From an uncultured Acidobacteriota bacterium (GTDB lineage: Bacteria; Acidobacteriota; Thermoanaerobaculia; UBA5066; Gp7-AA6): DNA of 64,000 bases. A model generated the notes under the pieces. It had not been told where the DNA came from. It saw only the letters and a program-made list of their open reading frames with translations, and ran no database searches. This document shows, piece by piece, positions 27,694-44,323 of the stretch. Position numbers and translations under genes: made by a program. The stretch lies in assembly GCA_963733955.1 (NCBI GenBank), contig CAVTEW010000003.1:1308322-1372321 (forward strand), written 5' to 3'. Numbering within the stretch: the stretch's first letter is position 1; each line of letters starts with the position of its first letter.

Positions 27694-28066
27694 CCTCCGA
27701 TACCAAGACCCCCCCGAAAAAATCTGTCAAAAAGCGCCCCTTCCTAGGCACGTACTAGGTCGGAAGGCGGCCATGGAGCGCTCCACTCCGCTTCCAGATT
27801 CCCCGCCCAGCGCGGGAACCAAGGAGGTTGTGTGTGAACGCCGAAAATACGCCTGTTCCGGCCTGAATCTCTGGCCCCCGTCGGTCCGGCTCGCGCGGGC
27901 CGGGCCGGCGGCCTTCGTTAGGTCAGCTCAACCCCGTGTCCGGTTGGCGATCGGCTAATAATCGACCGCGTGACTGGAGGGCGACGCAGCAGGCGACGTG
28001 GGTCGGCTTCTCGACGATCGTCATCGCAGGATGACGTTGGAACCGGTCCAGGGAAGTCCCTCAGAC

Positions 28067-28377
28067 GATCCACGGAAGCCTTCTATCGCGAGTATTTTCT
28101 GCCGCTCGTCCGCCGGGCGACCTGGCGGCACGGACTGTCCTCCGACGACGCCCGGGATATCGTGCAGGACGCCTTCCTGATCGCGCTCGAGAAAATGGAT
28201 TTCGCCAGAAGCCTGGAAGCCTGGATCCTCTAGAGGGGCGCGGCCGGCCATCGAGGAAGAGAAAATGATCCCCGAAGGCATCGCGGCTTACGGCCTTCTC
28301 GGCGAATCCGTCCGCCGCCGTCAGATCAACCGCCAGGCCCTGCGCGATCTTCACGGCTACTTCCGCCACGATCGCTG
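28067..28377 (+). pseudogene. decayed remnant of a sigma-region-2-only / TPR-partner cassette: a region-2 fragment, then a 38-aa C-terminal partner fragment
   Basis: FYREYFLPLVRRATWRHGLSSDDARDIVQDAFLIALEK (28067-28233) resembles the 30974 gene product. MIPEGIAAYGLLGESVRRRQINRQALRDLHGYF (28264-28377) matches the C-terminus of the 31353 protein (KMVPEGMAALALLRQSLRNHRINREALRNLHGYF). Confidence 0.55.
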
Positions 28378-28494
28378 ACCACTGCGGGCTTCAAATCCGC
28401 CGCCCGTCCTCGGGACCTGGGAACCCTCTCACGGAGCACGGCTTACTCCTCGCGACACTAAGTTAGGTAGAGGATTGCTCTGAGAGGAGGGACC

Positions 28495-29670
28495 ATGCGG
28501 AGTCGGACCGCGGTCGCGGCATCGATCGTCGGCATTTTTCTCAGTCTTCCAGCAGTCGGTCGGCAGGCTCTTGCGAGTGCGGATGCGGGCGGCCAGAGCC
28601 CAGCGGCCGGCCTCCACCGATCGGCGACGAAGCCAGAGAACGTCGCGGCGAGCAATACCTGGTTCTACACGATCCGCGACGAGAACAACCGGCCGGCGAT
28701 CGAGTATCACCTCGGCCAGGCCGGCAACGTCATCACCGATCGCATTTACGCCTACCTCGGCAACACATTGGTAGCCACCTACGAGGCGAGCGGCAATTCG
28801 CCCGGGTGGGTTTACTACGGCACCGATCACCTGGGCTCCGTGCGGACCGTGATGTCCGGTACGACCTGCACGCAGCAGTTCCAGCCTTTCGGCGAACCGG
28901 CCGGGCAGAGCTGCTCAACTGGCAGCCCGGTCAAGTTTGCCGGCATGGAACGAGACTCGACCTCTGGCAACGACTACGACCATGCGAGGTTCCACGGGGG
29001 GGGGAGCACGCTGGGACGGTTCCTCGGTCCTGACAAGCTCCAGGGTCATCCTGCCGATCCGCAGTCCTGGAACCGTTACGCATACGCCCGGAACAGCCCG
29101 GTCACTCTCATCGATCGCAATGGCATGGAGTTCGGCTCGCCGGGTGGAGGTGCCGAGCTGCACACGGCTGTCCTAAACTTTGAGGCGACCTACCATCACA
29201 GCGAGCCGGCGATGGCTGAGCTCGGCCAGTCGGTCGCCCTGCAAGAGACCCTTGGTCCCGTGGGAACGGCGGCTGTGCTCATCTCTGGCGCCGGCCCTGC
29301 GGTCAGACTCATCTCAGAGATCTCGAGCATTCGGCCTCCCACTGCTCCGCGCGAGGCCGATTCGAACACGCTAGGGCCCGGCCCGTACTCGGGCAGATCG
29401 ATTCCGGCTCGTGGAGAGCAACGCAATTTCACCGTAGCAGAGCGATCTCAAATTAACGAGGCAGGTTCAGAAACCGGCTGTCATACCTGCGGTACAAAGG
29501 TTCCAGGAACAAAGAGCGGAAATTTCGTTCCCGACCATCAGCCTCCGAACGCGCTCAACGAGCCGGGCGAGCCGCAACGTCTGTATCCGCAATGCATAGA
29601 CTGCAGCCGGCAGCAGGGCCTTCAAATCATCCGCACATTGAAGGACGTCCTGGGACCGCCCGTGAAATGA
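28495..29670 (+). CDS. small secreted RHS-repeat-associated-core toxin: signal peptide, RHS core, then an HNH/EndoVII-like nuclease-type C-terminal tip (putative)
   Basis: Signal peptide MRSRTAVAASIVGIFLSLPAVG. The core (WFYTIRDENNRPAIEYH...YYGTDHLGSVR...FAGMERDSTSGNDYDHARFHGGGSTLGRF) is near-identical to the core of the giant rhs. C-terminal CHTCG...DHQPP...CIDC motif. Confidence 0.8.
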   Translation: MRSRTAVAASIVGIFLSLPAVGRQALASADAGGQSPAAGLHRSATKPENVAASNTWFYTIRDENNRPAIEYHLGQAGNVITDRIYAYLGNTLVATYEASGNSPGWVYYGTDHLGSVRTVMSGTTCTQQFQPFGEPAGQSCSTGSPVKFAGMERDSTSGNDYDHARFHGGGSTLGRFLGPDKLQGHPADPQSWNRYAYARNSPVTLIDRNGMEFGSPGGGAELHTAVLNFEATYHHSEPAMAELGQSVALQETLGPVGTAAVLISGAGPAVRLISEISSIRPPTAPREADSNTLGPGPYSGRSIPARGEQRNFTVAERSQINEAGSETGCHTCGTKVPGTKSGNFVPDHQPPNALNEPGEPQRLYPQCIDCSRQQGLQIIRTLKDVLGPPVK

Positions 29671-29677
29671 TCTGGCC

Positions 29678-43248: not shown

Positions 43249-43676
43249 GTGAGATGGTTGCGGCCTATCGGACGGCGAAGAACTGGGTCGTCGTGCCTCG
43301 CCTCCAGACCACAGCCGGAGTCTGGATCACGACCAGTGAAATTGAGGTTCTTCCCCTGACAGAGAGAGAGGACACAGTTGCCGCGAAAATTCTGGCCGCT
43401 TTAACAAAGTCTCGCAAGGGAGTTCGACACCCTTCGCAGGCTGAATGGCCGGAAATCACTAGGCGGGTCCCTGATGCCGCGGGCTTCAGGTCTTGGGCCA
43501 GTCTCCTGCGAGGGGCCCTGTGCCTGACGGTGGTTCGCGAGGGAGGGTCGGTCAAGATCATGAAGATGGCGAGAGGAGCGACGGGCGGTCTCAGCGAGGA
43601 TCCGGTTCATTCGCGAATTGTCCATTCGGATGCTGCGGAGGTCGGAAGAGCCATTGCAGATTTATCCAGTTCATAG
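43245..43676 (+). CDS. putative immunity protein for the Rhs C-terminal toxin
   Basis: ATG overlaps the rhs stop (ATGA). Small soluble protein. Assignment positional. Confidence 0.5.
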   Translation: MSEMVAAYRTAKNWVVVPRLQTTAGVWITTSEIEVLPLTEREDTVAAKILAALTKSRKGVRHPSQAEWPEITRRVPDAAGFRSWASLLRGALCLTVVREGGSVKIMKMARGATGGLSEDPVHSRIVHSDAAEVGRAIADLSSS

Positions 43677-43760
43677 GGCGCCCGGCTCGAGCCTTTGGGC
43701 TGAATCGGTCTGCCAGGTGTTGGATCCGAAACGAGGCTTGCCAGCAGGAGGGGCGGAGAG

Positions 43761-44087
43761 GTGGGCTACAACCTGTATGTGACGAGGGCGGTCGATTGGT
43801 CGTCCAATTCCGGAAACGAGATCTCTCCCCAGGAGTGGCTCTCCGTAGTTGACGGTGACCCAAGTCTGGTCAGGTTCTCCGCGAACGGGCCCTATTTCGC
43901 ATTGTGGGATCGTGCCGACCAGCCGGATAGCCCCTGGATAGATTGGTTCGGCGGAAACCTCTATTCAAAGAACCCTGACCGAGCGGTTCTTGGGAAGCTG
44001 CTAGAGATCGCCAATCGCCTGCATGCAAGAGTGCAGGGGGAGGAAGGCGAGGAGTATCGGTCACCCGAAGACATCGGCGCTGACTAA
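43761..44087 (+). CDS. small hypothetical protein (possible orphan immunity)
   Basis: GTG start with GGAGAG upstream. No motif recognised. Confidence 0.3.
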   Translation: MGYNLYVTRAVDWSSNSGNEISPQEWLSVVDGDPSLVRFSANGPYFALWDRADQPDSPWIDWFGGNLYSKNPDRAVLGKLLEIANRLHARVQGEEGEEYRSPEDIGAD

Positions 44088-44323
44088 GCTGGTCGCATCG
44101 GAGCTGGGAAACTCCTGAATAGCTATTCGGCTCTAAGTGCGATCGCCACGAGGACGCCCCGCTTCAACGCGGGATGAATTGATCCTCCGGTCACCCCTGC
44201 CCCTTCTTGCGGAGTTCGCAAGCGTTGGTCGAGACGGTCGGTTCTATGAGCTTTGACTTCTGCTCGGCCTCTCGAACTGCAGGGAGCTTGGGAAGTGGGT
44301 TGCGCCAAACAAGCGATCCCCAT

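Follow-up and report, generated by a model that had tools for sequence, protein, structure and literature searches.

A likely Sec-signal Rhs polymorphic-toxin locus with its own sigma-type regulators in an acidobacterium

What kind of locus is a run of toxin and regulator genes that stands out in composition from the acidobacterial chromosome around it: a mobile element, a set of decaying duplicates, or a toxin system that carries its own regulators? Acidobacteria are among the most abundant soil phyla. To our knowledge, Rhs toxin loci, so familiar from Proteobacteria, are almost undescribed in Acidobacteria, and the regulation of Rhs genes outside T6SS clusters is poorly understood. The window analyzed here is a 64-kb stretch of DNA, and an initial annotation had placed polymorphic-toxin and regulator cassettes in its middle. 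The Rhs, toxin, Imm33-like, and sigma matches bear that description out, and all of the listed components (a cassette remnant, an orphan Rhs gene with immunity gene, hypothetical ORFs, regulator cassettes, and a giant Rhs gene) were found in or near the places assigned to them. We consider it likely that we are dealing with an Rhs polymorphic-toxin locus with a Sec signal and its own sigma-type regulators, seated in the chromosome of an uncultured, Thermoanaerobaculia-like soil acidobacterium. It is a known kind of system, an Rhs locus with recombinational turnover, combined with a probably new regulatory variant.

Extent and composition of the island

Composition sets off an island at about 25.8 to 44.3 kb of the window. 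GC3 of the 13 island genes ranges from 0.62 to 0.84 (mean, 0.716), compared with 0.873 +/- 0.035 for 32 flanking genes (Mann-Whitney p=4.5e-7), and tetranucleotide correlation to the flanks is 0.86 to 0.91 over 28 to 44 kb, 0.95 in the 24- to 28-kb bin, and 0.96 to 0.99 in the other bins. The locus is compositionally foreign, and the contrast is stronger and wider than the lower GC first reported for it. Three features frame its borders:

25808..26308, + strand: full ECF-type sigma factor, 166 aa (Pfam Sigma70_r2 2e-10; NCBIfam sigma70-ECF 1.4e-13)
26296..27693, + strand: anti-sigma factor with N-terminal zf-HC2 and C-terminal TPR (Pfam zf-HC2 1.2e-4, TPR_12 1e-14)
45033-45881: DedA/VTT gene

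The left edge falls at the gene for the 166-aa protein (GC3, 0.79), which aligns to positions 13 to 164 of 165 in the sigma70-ECF model and qualifies as an ECF (group 4) sigma factor; the anti-sigma gene that follows is also called in public assemblies. The limits originally drawn, 27700 to 44100, therefore need extending to about 44.3 kb on the right and, on the left, to take in the sigma/anti-sigma pair at 25808-27693. The idea that the island was everything between the anti-sigma gene and DedA fails at both ends, as the anti-sigma gene itself lies inside and DedA/VTT begins only at 45033. An ORF at 44207-44854 was rejected as DedA; it encodes a small basic protein.

Atypical base composition is the one hallmark of a genomic island found here. 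As the initial annotation had also observed, mobility genes are missing: no tRNA was found, integrases and transposases gave no Pfam match in our own scans and do not appear in public gene calls, no gene call contains phage genes, and no direct or inverted repeats were found flanking the island.

Rhs proteins, toxins, and immunity genes

Two Rhs genes of very different size, one followed by an Imm33-like and the other by a presumed immunity gene, make up the toxin portion of the locus:

28495..29670, + strand: "mini-Rhs," orphan core plus toxin (TIGR03696 3.2e-12; BLASTP against the main Rhs 9e-83)
28996..29004, + strand: G9 homopolymer inside the mini-Rhs gene (G10, a frameshift, in a related genome)
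29678..30325, + strand: Imm33-like immunity gene for the mini-Rhs toxin (PF24719 2e-25)
34411..43248, + strand: main Rhs, 2945 aa (RHS_repeat 1.2e-25; Rhs core 3.9e-12; CDI_toxin_EC869_like 2e-8)
43245..43676, + strand: presumed cognate immunity gene, 143 aa (4-nt overlap with rhs; replaced along with the toxin tip in the relative)
43761..44087, + strand: small ORF, 108 aa (in the variable tip region; called in public assemblies)

The true start of the main Rhs protein is likely M19, at 34465, with a signal peptide ending in GLGAQA. An N-terminal region and YD/RHS repeats (PF05593 1.2e-25, or 3.6e-32 on aa 791-1390; TIGR01643 3.1e-17) reach to aa ~1385. They are followed by an insert of ~1200 aa (nt ~38565-42180) composed of Ig-like domains and 48-aa GDWNGDG repeats, which is missing from homologues of ~1700 aa and is found in P0002. 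The core occupies nt 42178-42651 (TIGR03696 3.9e-12 at aa 2666-2747, with DPSGL at aa 2743), and an EC869-like DNase toxin occupies nt 42652-43248 (CDI_toxin_EC869_like 3.6e-10 on the tip alone). The last ~105 aa match PF21111 above the Pfam cutoff (35-40.6 bits versus 27), and comparison with the CdiA-CT of PDB 4zqu gave 0.072. This tip thus resembles the CdiA-CT EC869-type DNases (PF21111; PDB 4zqu), except that it is carried on an Rhs scaffold and that the presumed immunity protein beside it lacks detectable similarity to known CdiI families. The 143-aa protein had no Pfam or NCBIfam match; the 108-aa ORF had no Pfam match and is absent from the relative.

The mini-Rhs protein repeats the core (at aa 48-212, with 75% identity to that of the main Rhs and a degenerate DRNGM site), and at the DNA level the two cores are direct repeats of ~450 nt with 75-85% identity, in line with the internal repeated modules reported earlier. 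Its C terminus carries a CxxC...DH...N..N...CxxC motif and gave no Pfam match and no PDB sequence match. Imm33 pairs with HNH-fold toxins, and the motif together with the Imm33-like neighbor is reminiscent of the Tox-HNH and Tox-DHNNK toxins paired with Imm33 (PMC3482391). Judged by the motifs and the Imm33 association, the mini-Rhs toxin is probably an HNH nuclease.

Many of these traits are familiar from Rhs loci of enterobacteria such as Salmonella, E. coli, and Dickeya, which combine a large YD-repeat protein, a conserved core, a DPxGL site, a variable toxin, and an adjacent immunity gene, exchange toxin tips by recombination at the core, and carry orphan rhs-CT modules, extra units of core fragment, toxin, and immunity gene that have several hundred nucleotides in common with the main gene (PMC3150448, PMC3967940). 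The mini-Rhs gene matches the orphan description in having a core fragment without the N-terminal shell, a distinct toxin, and an immunity gene. The label "orphan" fits only in part, however, as the module lies 13.5 kb upstream rather than downstream of the main gene and, instead of lacking a start, has its own upstream element, a GGAGGG RBS, an ATG, and a signal-peptide-like N terminus, in addition to the degenerate DRNGM site and the G9 tract. Further departures from the enterobacterial loci are the Sec signal peptide, the interleaving of regulator cassettes with toxin genes, and the ~1200-aa Ig-like/repeat insert before the core.

PAAR, VgrG, or T6SS context is likewise lacking: no such Pfam match was obtained in the main Rhs or in the genes scanned across the 64-kb window, and the N terminus is instead a signal peptide. 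Bacillus subtilis WapA is a Sec-dependent Rhs/YD toxin. The main Rhs has in common with this type a signal peptide, YD repeats, a C-terminal nuclease-type toxin, and a presumed cognate immunity gene; it differs in its large Ig-like insert and in that its host is presumably a diderm, whose outer membrane the protein would also have to cross. We identified no outer membrane export route for it. A "T2SS/Sec" class of polymorphic toxins is recognized in Table 1 of PMC3482391. Both toxins would be nucleases aimed at neighboring bacteria, with the genes downstream providing self-protection.

The G9 tract is one of only two homopolymers of at least 8 nt in the window, and the homologous codons of the main Rhs read GGGGGTGGG. 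The short-read assembly of Logan ERR12037362 holds mini-Rhs gene calls of the frameshifted length, and Logan contigs L016 and L001 break at the tract. We suggest that the tract could serve as an on-off switch for the small toxin. Besides an Rhs shell protein interrupted by ~1200 aa of Ig-like sequence, the locus would offer a small core-toxin gene that is expressed on its own and may be switched at a homopolymer.

An identical block and a replaced toxin tip in a related genome

Comparison with a related genome divides the locus in a way that composition does not:

23327..37160: block identical to the related genome apart from the G9/G10 indel (relative's flanks 70-89% identical)
42508..44296: variable tip, from ~45 aa before the end of the core through the toxin and the presumed immunity gene to the small ORF (replaced in the relative)

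Over 13.8 kb, the G9/G10 indel is the sole difference between the two genomes. To the right of the block, inside the Rhs gene, identity runs as a mosaic of 99, 97, 89, 79, 95, 90, and 76%, and up to nt 42507 the 500-nt bins of the relative are otherwise 75-100% identical. Beyond that point the relative carries an HNH-type CxxC/DH toxin with an Imm33-like gene (8e-34), so that the toxin type of the mini-Rhs here is the tip of the main Rhs there. An EC869-like DNase in one genome and an unrelated toxin in the other amount to the variable C terminus expected of an Rhs protein. The relative's arrangement is known from one contig, and both sequences are metagenome assembled.

These comparisons alter some of the earlier picture. 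Recombination-driven turnover is upheld by the tip replacement at 42507/42508, precisely in the Rhs core, a deletion remnant, domain-shuffled partner proteins, and the identity gradient in the Rhs gene. That the locus is accessory, in the sense of being present in some relatives and absent in others, is not demonstrated: the sole close relative found has it at the same site, and more distant species representatives lack synteny even in the flanks. Neither do the limits of 27700 to 44100 correspond to the recently exchanged block.

Two species seem to have traded part of the locus very recently, and we propose that the locus evolves by homologous recombination among co-occurring relatives, by which blocks would be exchanged, tips replaced, cassettes deleted, and domains shuffled, all without a mobile element. 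One could object that an identity of 13.8 kb is an artifact of metagenome assembly or polishing where both organisms co-occur, with no real recent exchange. Both sequences come from metagenomes, the relative is represented by a single contig, the single difference sits in a homopolymer, a typical error site, and both 42493-42495 and the G tract are places where short-read contigs begin or are interrupted, which suggests that both variants were present in the same samples. We find this explanation unlikely, though it deserves to be kept in mind, given that identity on the right declines as a mosaic within the Rhs gene and not in one step, that independent short-read contigs from three runs reproduce the window sequence including the tip-to-flank junction (42495-47569), that the frameshift-length gene calls come from a separate short-read assembly, and that the block ends in genes common to both genomes, as homologous recombination predicts. 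Those same end points speak against a classic mobile genomic island, whether an integrative element, a prophage remnant, or a transposon. Atypical composition and high identity between divergent genomes would suit such an element, but the block ends inside conserved chromosomal genes and not at the compositional borders, and with no tRNA, integrase, transposase, phage gene, or flanking repeat we regard it as highly improbable. The replaced tip, in turn, bears on whether the giant Rhs is mainly a surface adhesin or an anti-eukaryote weapon rather than an antibacterial toxin. YD-shell proteins include the insecticidal Tc toxins and teneurins, and the Ig-like and GDWNGDG array, the Sec signal, and the absence of a T6SS marker could all be read in that direction. 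Such a role is nevertheless very unlikely for a protein that ends in a CDI-type DNase domain and whose gene is overlapped at its end by a small one. In the relative, an HNH-like toxin and an Imm33-like immunity gene take the place of both, which is the mark of self-protection from an antibacterial toxin. Recombination among co-occurring relatives would then make this a natural case of two species sharing out a toxin/regulator block in the very recent past, with a bearing on how kin discrimination evolves in soil.

Stand-alone sigma-2 proteins and a common upstream element

Between and before the Rhs genes lie the regulator cassettes, two of them in opposite orientation (one on the + strand and one on the - strand), as first described, together with copies of a 13-nt element:

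27970..28370, + strand: internally deleted sigma-2-only/TPR-partner cassette (Sigma70_r2 2.7e-5 on an 87-aa ORF)
28449..28461, + strand: cis-element CTCGCGACACTAA, 46 nt upstream of the orphan ATG (PWM score, 18.4)
30362..30895, + strand: "S" protein, whose C-terminal ~110 aa belong to the small-protein family that opens the canonical sigma-2-only module
30921..30933, + strand: cis-element CTCGCGACATATA upstream of the cassette 2 sigma gene (16.4 bits)
31013..31336, + strand: sigma-region-2-only protein, 107 aa, cassette 2 (Sigma70_r2 3.5e-6)
31353..32957, + strand: partner, 534 aa, with a ~130-aa helical N-domain and a ~360-aa TPR domain (TPR/SNAP matches)
33045..33809, - strand: partner, 254 aa, with the N-domain of the 534-aa partner fused to an S-like C-terminal domain (alignment)
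33809..34198, - strand: sigma-region-2-only protein of cassette 3, 129 aa, oriented divergently to the main Rhs gene (Sigma70_r2 2e-5)
34224..34236, - strand: cis-element CTCGCGACACTAC upstream of the cassette 3 sigma gene (18.4 bits)
34369..34381, + strand: cis-element TTCGCGACACTAA upstream of the main Rhs gene (14.1 bits)

The 107- and 129-aa proteins match only positions ~6-90 of the ~165 in the ECF model and end at the linker. The AF2 model is a three-helix sigma-2 domain; for the cassette 2 protein (pLDDT 80.6), the best fold matches are the ECF sigma-2 domains 6dv9_F and 4lup, and a profile search against PDB found SigJ at 2.6e-5. The cassette 3 protein is 50% identical to it and keeps the family's invariant residues. 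With 87 representative clusters, nearly all of 100-135 aa, and no fewer than 811 clusters at 90% identity, the region-2-only proteins form a genuine family, about 105-135 aa in length. ECF classifications require both domains and so leave these proteins out by design (PMC7826278). They were accordingly rejected as ECF (group 4) sigma factors, only the region 2 part of the model being aligned. The SigO-RsoA type of split sigma also pairs a small, essentially region-2-like protein with a dedicated partner gene, but this assignment was set aside because no co-encoded partner has a sigma-4 or -35-binding domain: no region 4 or HTH domain was detected in either partner or in other module genes. The present family further differs in being acidobacterial and in having partners with TPR or "S" domains.

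Elsewhere (L103 and L104), sigma-2-only proteins belong to a conserved four-gene module of a housekeeping type, and the island's sigma cassettes and hypothetical ORFs are paralogues of it rather than random cargo, although rearranged relative to the canonical order. The "S" protein is 58% identical to L100:7636-7998 and 37-40% identical to the first genes of the L103 and L104 modules. The 534-aa partner (N-domain model pLDDT 75) matches the gene after the sigma-2-only gene in both modules over its full length at 26-27% identity; it has full-length homologues of 475-535 aa as well as a very large family of 368-aa TPR relatives. Residues 166-261 of the 254-aa partner are 26-29% identical to the S proteins of L103 and L104. 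The 87-aa ORF is 55% identical to the cassette 2 sigma, and its surroundings match cassette 2 in two pieces (28081-28189 to 31055-31163, 72%; 28237-28363 to 32813-32939, 69%), one in the 5' portion of the sigma gene and the other at the 3' end of the partner gene; the remnant therefore arose by internal deletion.

The 13-nt element, CTCGCGACAAYW, stands before sigma-2-only genes and Rhs genes both in this window and in independent metagenomes, giving the cassettes and the toxin genes a feature in common. The window contains three matches versus 0.51 expected. When a PWM trained solely on sigma-upstream sites was scanned over 2.14 M positions, four of the seven best nontraining hits lay directly upstream of Rhs ORFs, and 4 of 14 Rhs upstream regions reached at least 12 bits, versus 0.13 expected. 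Sites of at least 14 bits occur in the window only before the two Rhs and the two sigma-2-only genes. The second Rhs of L020 and more distant Rhs loci are without the element, which has no recognizable -35 partner.

Target promoters of autoregulated ECF pairs are predicted from a motif common to the sigma gene and its targets. The island resembles such pairs in having one short motif before sigma genes and neighboring Rhs genes, partners immediately downstream, and one canonical ECF sigma with a zf-HC2 anti-sigma; it differs in that the motif is a single block without a conserved -35, two of the sigmas lack region 4, and their partners lack zf-HC2. We propose that the element is a promoter or promoter-proximal site through which the sigma-type cassettes would switch on the toxin genes and themselves, with the partners acting as signal-sensing, anti-sigma-like brakes. 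More speculatively, the stand-alone sigma-2 proteins could be new minimal sigma factors without region 4, mostly of uncultured Acidobacteria, that bring RNA polymerase to CTCGCGACAAYW as a single-block promoter with no recognition of a -35, are restrained by the N-domain/TPR partners, and include a Sec-exported Rhs subfamily in their regulon. If so, toxin production would be wired to a signal sensed by the TPR partners, but we hold this version to be doubtful. The element also precedes full-length ECF-like sigma genes (L021 and L025), so it may be read by something other than the sigma-2-only proteins, and it could be an operator for another regulator. Another reading takes the cassettes for decaying duplicates of an ECF sigma/anti-sigma pair that play no part in controlling the toxins, and the motif for a trace of duplication within the locus or a promoter feature general to these bacteria. 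In its favor, one cassette has plainly been reduced by deletion, the island copies depart from the canonical module, region 2 gives weak Pfam E values, and no partner with a sigma-4 domain turned up; the elements of the main Rhs and the orphan also have flanking bases in common (22 nt in all), a similarity that may derive in part from duplication. We nonetheless find this reading rather improbable. Against it stand the large family with conserved length and invariant residues, the restriction of the strongest window sites to the fronts of four genes, and the presence of the element before Rhs genes just 34-45% identical in protein sequence in independent metagenomes and before the sigma-2-only genes of L103 and L104, whose intergenic regions are similar at the element only. 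Through the element, the locus would offer a testable link between these regulators and Rhs toxin genes; it would also bring to light a large, unclassified sigma-2-only protein family. The divergent arrangement of sigma and Rhs genes recurs in the P0002 contig, L020, and L021.

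Extent and composition of the island

The window lies in high-GC DNA (about 0.68 to 0.72 outside the region considered here), and the public record places the Rhs protein on a 3.2-Mb contig. A Pfam-type gene scan found ordinary chromosomal genes in the flanks, encoding Lon, an AIR-synthase-like protein, a radical-SAM/SPASM enzyme, and peptidases S41 and M16, along with HEAT-repeat proteins, hybrid histidine kinases, and a response regulator. Judged by the flanking DedA/VTT protein, the closest species representatives are uncultured Acidobacteriota/Thermoanaerobaculia metagenome-assembled genomes, at 56 to 65% protein identity. 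In the left flank, the radical-SAM/SPASM gene (10467-11930, minus) is near a gene for a secreted Ig-domain (Big_7) protein (8006-9856, plus), an arrangement unrelated to the toxin locus.

Between the flanks we distinguish the following features:
25808-26308, complete ECF sigma gene
26296-27693, zf-HC2/TPR anti-sigma gene
27970-28370 (+), remnant cassette
28495-29670 (+), orphan Rhs gene
29678-30325 (+), Imm33-like gene
30362-30895 (+), S protein gene
31013-31336 (+), 107-aa sigma protein with region 2 only
31353-32957 (+), 534-aa partner
33045-33809 (-), 254-aa partner
33809-34198 (-), 129-aa sigma protein with region 2 only
34411-43248 (+), 2,945-aa main Rhs
43245-43676 (+), 143-aa ORF

Every island element listed in the initial annotation is real, but its borders needed revision. 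It took the DedA gene as the right-hand limit; the product of the ORF at 44207-44854 is a small basic protein, and DedA/VTT is actually at 45033-45881. It also assigned the sigma/anti-sigma pair at 25808-27693 to the left flank, but this pair shares the atypical composition and should be counted with the region. The lower GC noted at 30.3-31.0 and 43.7-44.3 kb extends beyond those two stretches. GC3 in 13 island genes was 0.62 to 0.84 (mean, 0.716), compared to 0.873 ± 0.035 in 32 flanking genes (p=4.5e-7), and tetranucleotide correlation to the flanks was 0.86 to 0.91 over 28-44 kb, compared to 0.96 to 0.99 in bins wholly outside the island. Together with the composition of the sigma pair, these data place the compositional island at about 25.8-44.3 kb. 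There were no tRNA genes in the window, and an Rfam scan of it returned no families. Among species representatives, a synteny check returned 13 loci (DedA protein identity, 39 to 65%), none with another window gene, and they are therefore uninformative on whether the island is present or absent.

Two toxin modules

The main Rhs protein is organized as follows:
signal peptide; M19 is the most likely start, matching that of the homologue P0002 (71% identical)
N-terminal family-specific region and YD repeats, extending to aa ~1385
Rhs-associated core, with DPSGL (aa 2743) at its end
C-terminal CDI_toxin_EC869_like DNase domain, weakly supported by PDB 4zqu

All sequence-defined features of Rhs are present and, as a toxin locus, this one is of a known kind; the T6SS features of Rhs proteins were sought in this protein and in genes scanned across the 64-kb window, and none was found. 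The 143-aa ORF overlaps the rhs stop codon by 4 nt and matched no family, and it is presumed to be an immunity gene from its position and co-variation.

An array of about 1,200 aa (window 38565-42180, Rhs aa ~1385-2590) separates the last YD repeats from the core, comprising a He_PIG/Ig-like domain, several Ig_7/Ig_3-like units, and four 48- to 49-aa GDWNGDG repeats that had no match in a Pfam scan. About 25 homologues (1.7-2.6 kb protein length) pass almost directly from 'ERVAR' to the core, and the Ig-like/GDWNGDG insert is present only in the Rhs proteins P0001, P0121, and P0002.

The orphan gene encodes a 391-aa protein with a Sec-signal-like N terminus (MRSR, a hydrophobic stretch, then ALASA). 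Over residues 48-212 it shares 75% identity with the main Rhs core, its cleavage motif is degenerate (DRNGM), and its tail carries the motif CxxC...DH...N..N...CxxC. Unlike usual orphan Rhs modules, this one lies upstream and has its own start, two features in which it departs from the pattern. A search of the toxin against Pfam and PDB sequences gave no match. The Imm33-like gene follows directly, and a polymorphic-toxin survey pairs Imm33 with HNH-fold toxins (PMC3482391), so we predict that the orphan toxin is likely an HNH nuclease.

A Gly/Ala-rich hydrophobic stretch, such as AAAGTGAAVVGAGALGAGAIELAAAGTGLEAAGG, follows the DPxGL-type site ahead of all three toxin tips (window 42652-42900 and 29110-29400, and 18140-18500 in L019), and it may represent a membrane-entry segment.

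Probable exchange with a close relative

Contig_35777 of ENA ERZ25039551 has the gene order of the window from the M16 peptidase to past the right-hand histidine kinase. Identity to the window differs from region to region:
15.9-23.3 kb, 82-90%
23327-37160, 100% save for the G9 run at 28996, which is one G longer in the relative
37.2-42.5 kb, inside rhs, a mosaic from 99% to 76%
42508-44296, no similarity
right flank, successive segments of 87%, 77%, 77%, and 70%

The identical block begins at 23327, where a 191-aa ECF sigma gene meets the gene downstream of it, and ends inside rhs. Both genomes have the sequence in which these two ends fall, a pattern consistent with homologous recombination following a transfer between relatives that co-occur. 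The break at 42507/42508 is at ARFHGGG codons, 45 residues ahead of DPSGL; beyond it the relative carries a CxxC/DH toxin tip of the type found in the window orphan (31% identity), together with an Imm33-like gene (8e-34).

One possibility is that identity of this length is an artifact of assembly or polishing. Short-read contigs from three runs match the window version, the tip-to-flank junction included; they begin at 42493-42495, and the G run interrupts them, a pattern that a mixed population would produce. We consider an artifact unlikely and retain recombination as the preferred explanation.

The G9 run (28996-29004) lies within the orphan Rhs gene, and G10 in the relative is the only difference over 13.8 kb. 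At the codons matching this run the main Rhs gene has GGGGGTGGG, and it is exactly at the orphan run that short-read contigs break. The difference may be a homopolymer sequencing error, or, speculatively, the tract may act as a slipped-strand on/off switch of the small toxin.

Sigma-type regulators and the shared upstream element

Matches of the 107- and 129-aa proteins to the ECF model are confined to the region 2 half. An exhaustive search found 87 representative clusters of this family, nearly all of 100 to 135 aa and aligning end to end, and at least 811 clusters in a profile search had PF04542 alone; these numbers and lengths led us to reject truncated pseudogenes as an explanation. The family consensus retains the region 2.2-2.4 signature, its profile matches the region 2 structures of SigJ, SigR, and sigma-E, and the predicted structure is a three-helix domain (pLDDT, 80.6) whose best structural matches are ECF sigma-2 domains. 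ECF classifications demand both domains (PMC7826278) and therefore omit these proteins, which fall outside the ECF definition. They also fall outside that of the split SigO-RsoA factor, their closest described analogue (PMC7826278). A region 4 domain was sought in the partner proteins and none was found.

Two loci of other genomes, L103 (5367-8846) and L104 (5378-8876), carry a conserved four-gene module that appears to be undescribed: a small S protein (132-137 aa), a 373-aa TPR protein, a sigma-2-only protein, and a partner of about 490 aa. It sits among housekeeping genes, with no Rhs nearby. By sequence homology, the island regulator genes are rearranged paralogues of this module. ORF 30362-30895 is an S protein. 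Along its entire length the 534-aa partner matches the canonical partner, and its TPR part also matches the 373-aa protein. The 254-aa partner fuses a ~130-aa N-domain common with the 534-aa partner to an S-like domain, and the remnant is a cassette that has lost its middle. The S protein was also considered as a divergent sigma-2 domain and rejected (hhalign probability, 0.8%). A metagenome scan with generic Rhs-core patterns, a broad Rhs sample, returned no loci with sigma-2-only, partner, S, or immunity relatives.

A very abundant 368-aa TPR family, nearly constant in length (367-369 aa in almost all of at least 312 clusters), is 53 to 58% identical to the C-terminal two-thirds of the 534-aa partner; an S-family gene precedes it in L100 (7636-9110), and it stands alone in L101 (8001-9107). 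Just left of the island, 22640-25624 holds a second canonical ECF sigma gene (191 aa, 23361-23936, minus) with a downstream 241-aa gene, and a PAS/HisKA/receiver hybrid kinase. The Rhs gene of the P0002 contig has as its direct neighbors a gene for a 191-aa ECF sigma and a 242-aa gene.

Comparison of upstream regions revealed a 13-nt element, CTCGCGACA(A/C)(T/C)(A/T), with four copies in the window:
28449-28461 (+), 46 nt ahead of the orphan ATG
30921-30933 (+), preceding the 107-aa sigma-2-only gene
34224-34236 (-), preceding the 129-aa sigma-2-only gene
34369-34381 (+), 42 nt ahead of the main Rhs ATG (one mismatch)

It also lies upstream of the L103 and L104 sigma-2-only genes, in intergenic regions otherwise dissimilar, ahead of full-length ECF-like sigma genes adjoining Rhs genes (L021 and L025), and 34-119 nt ahead of Rhs ORFs (L020, L022, and L024; the L023 site is weaker). 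The 12-mer, allowing at most one mismatch, was observed three times in the window, against 0.51 expected. When a weight matrix trained on six sigma-upstream sites only was run over 2.14 million positions, the top 13 comprised the training sites, plus four that immediately precede Rhs ORFs and three of unassigned context; in a set of 14 Rhs upstream regions, 4 reached 12 bits or more (0.13 expected). More distant Rhs loci were without the element, no conserved -35 box preceded it across the genomes compared, and a scan for sigma-70 promoters and terminators did not exceed chance. GGAAC at N28 was rejected as a -35 because it occurs in three window copies only and lies at too great a distance.

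The closest Rhs relatives, namely the P0002 contig, the second Rhs of L020, and L021, again show a sigma gene divergent from an Rhs gene. We read these pairs and the element distribution as a candidate regulon signature, of the kind used for predicting ECF targets. The literature searched held no paper tying ECF sigmas to Rhs, on Rhs in Thermoanaerobaculia, or on region-4-less sigma families, and did not describe the link of sigma-2-only proteins, single-block element, and Rhs genes. That a minimal sigma without region 4 controls Rhs toxins strikes us as rather improbable.

Following established Rhs knowledge, the YD shell of the main Rhs would enclose the DNase tip, which after Sec export would be delivered to neighboring cells while the putative immunity protein encoded downstream shields the producer. 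The upstream module would be a second toxin/immunity pair, either self-expressed or serving as recombination donor and immunity reserve, its small toxin conceivably toggled by the G9/G10 tract. As the element suggests, the sigma-type cassettes might switch on themselves and both toxin genes, with TPR or S-domain partners acting as brakes that answer a signal.

High-scoring copies also occur in neither sigma nor Rhs contexts: at 9155 in L101, following the 368-aa TPR gene and preceding an ATP-grasp gene, and at 11900 (-) in L003, an uncharacterized site. These copies may mark additional regulon members or may match by chance. The 13-kb L020 contig (genes listed at 1627-6786, 8913-11798, 11979-12581 [minus], and 12756-13199) has two Rhs genes of the main Rhs subfamily and a separate 962-aa protein bearing similar GDWNGDG-type repeats; its full-length ECF sigma gene is divergent from the second Rhs, and the element lies upstream of the first only.
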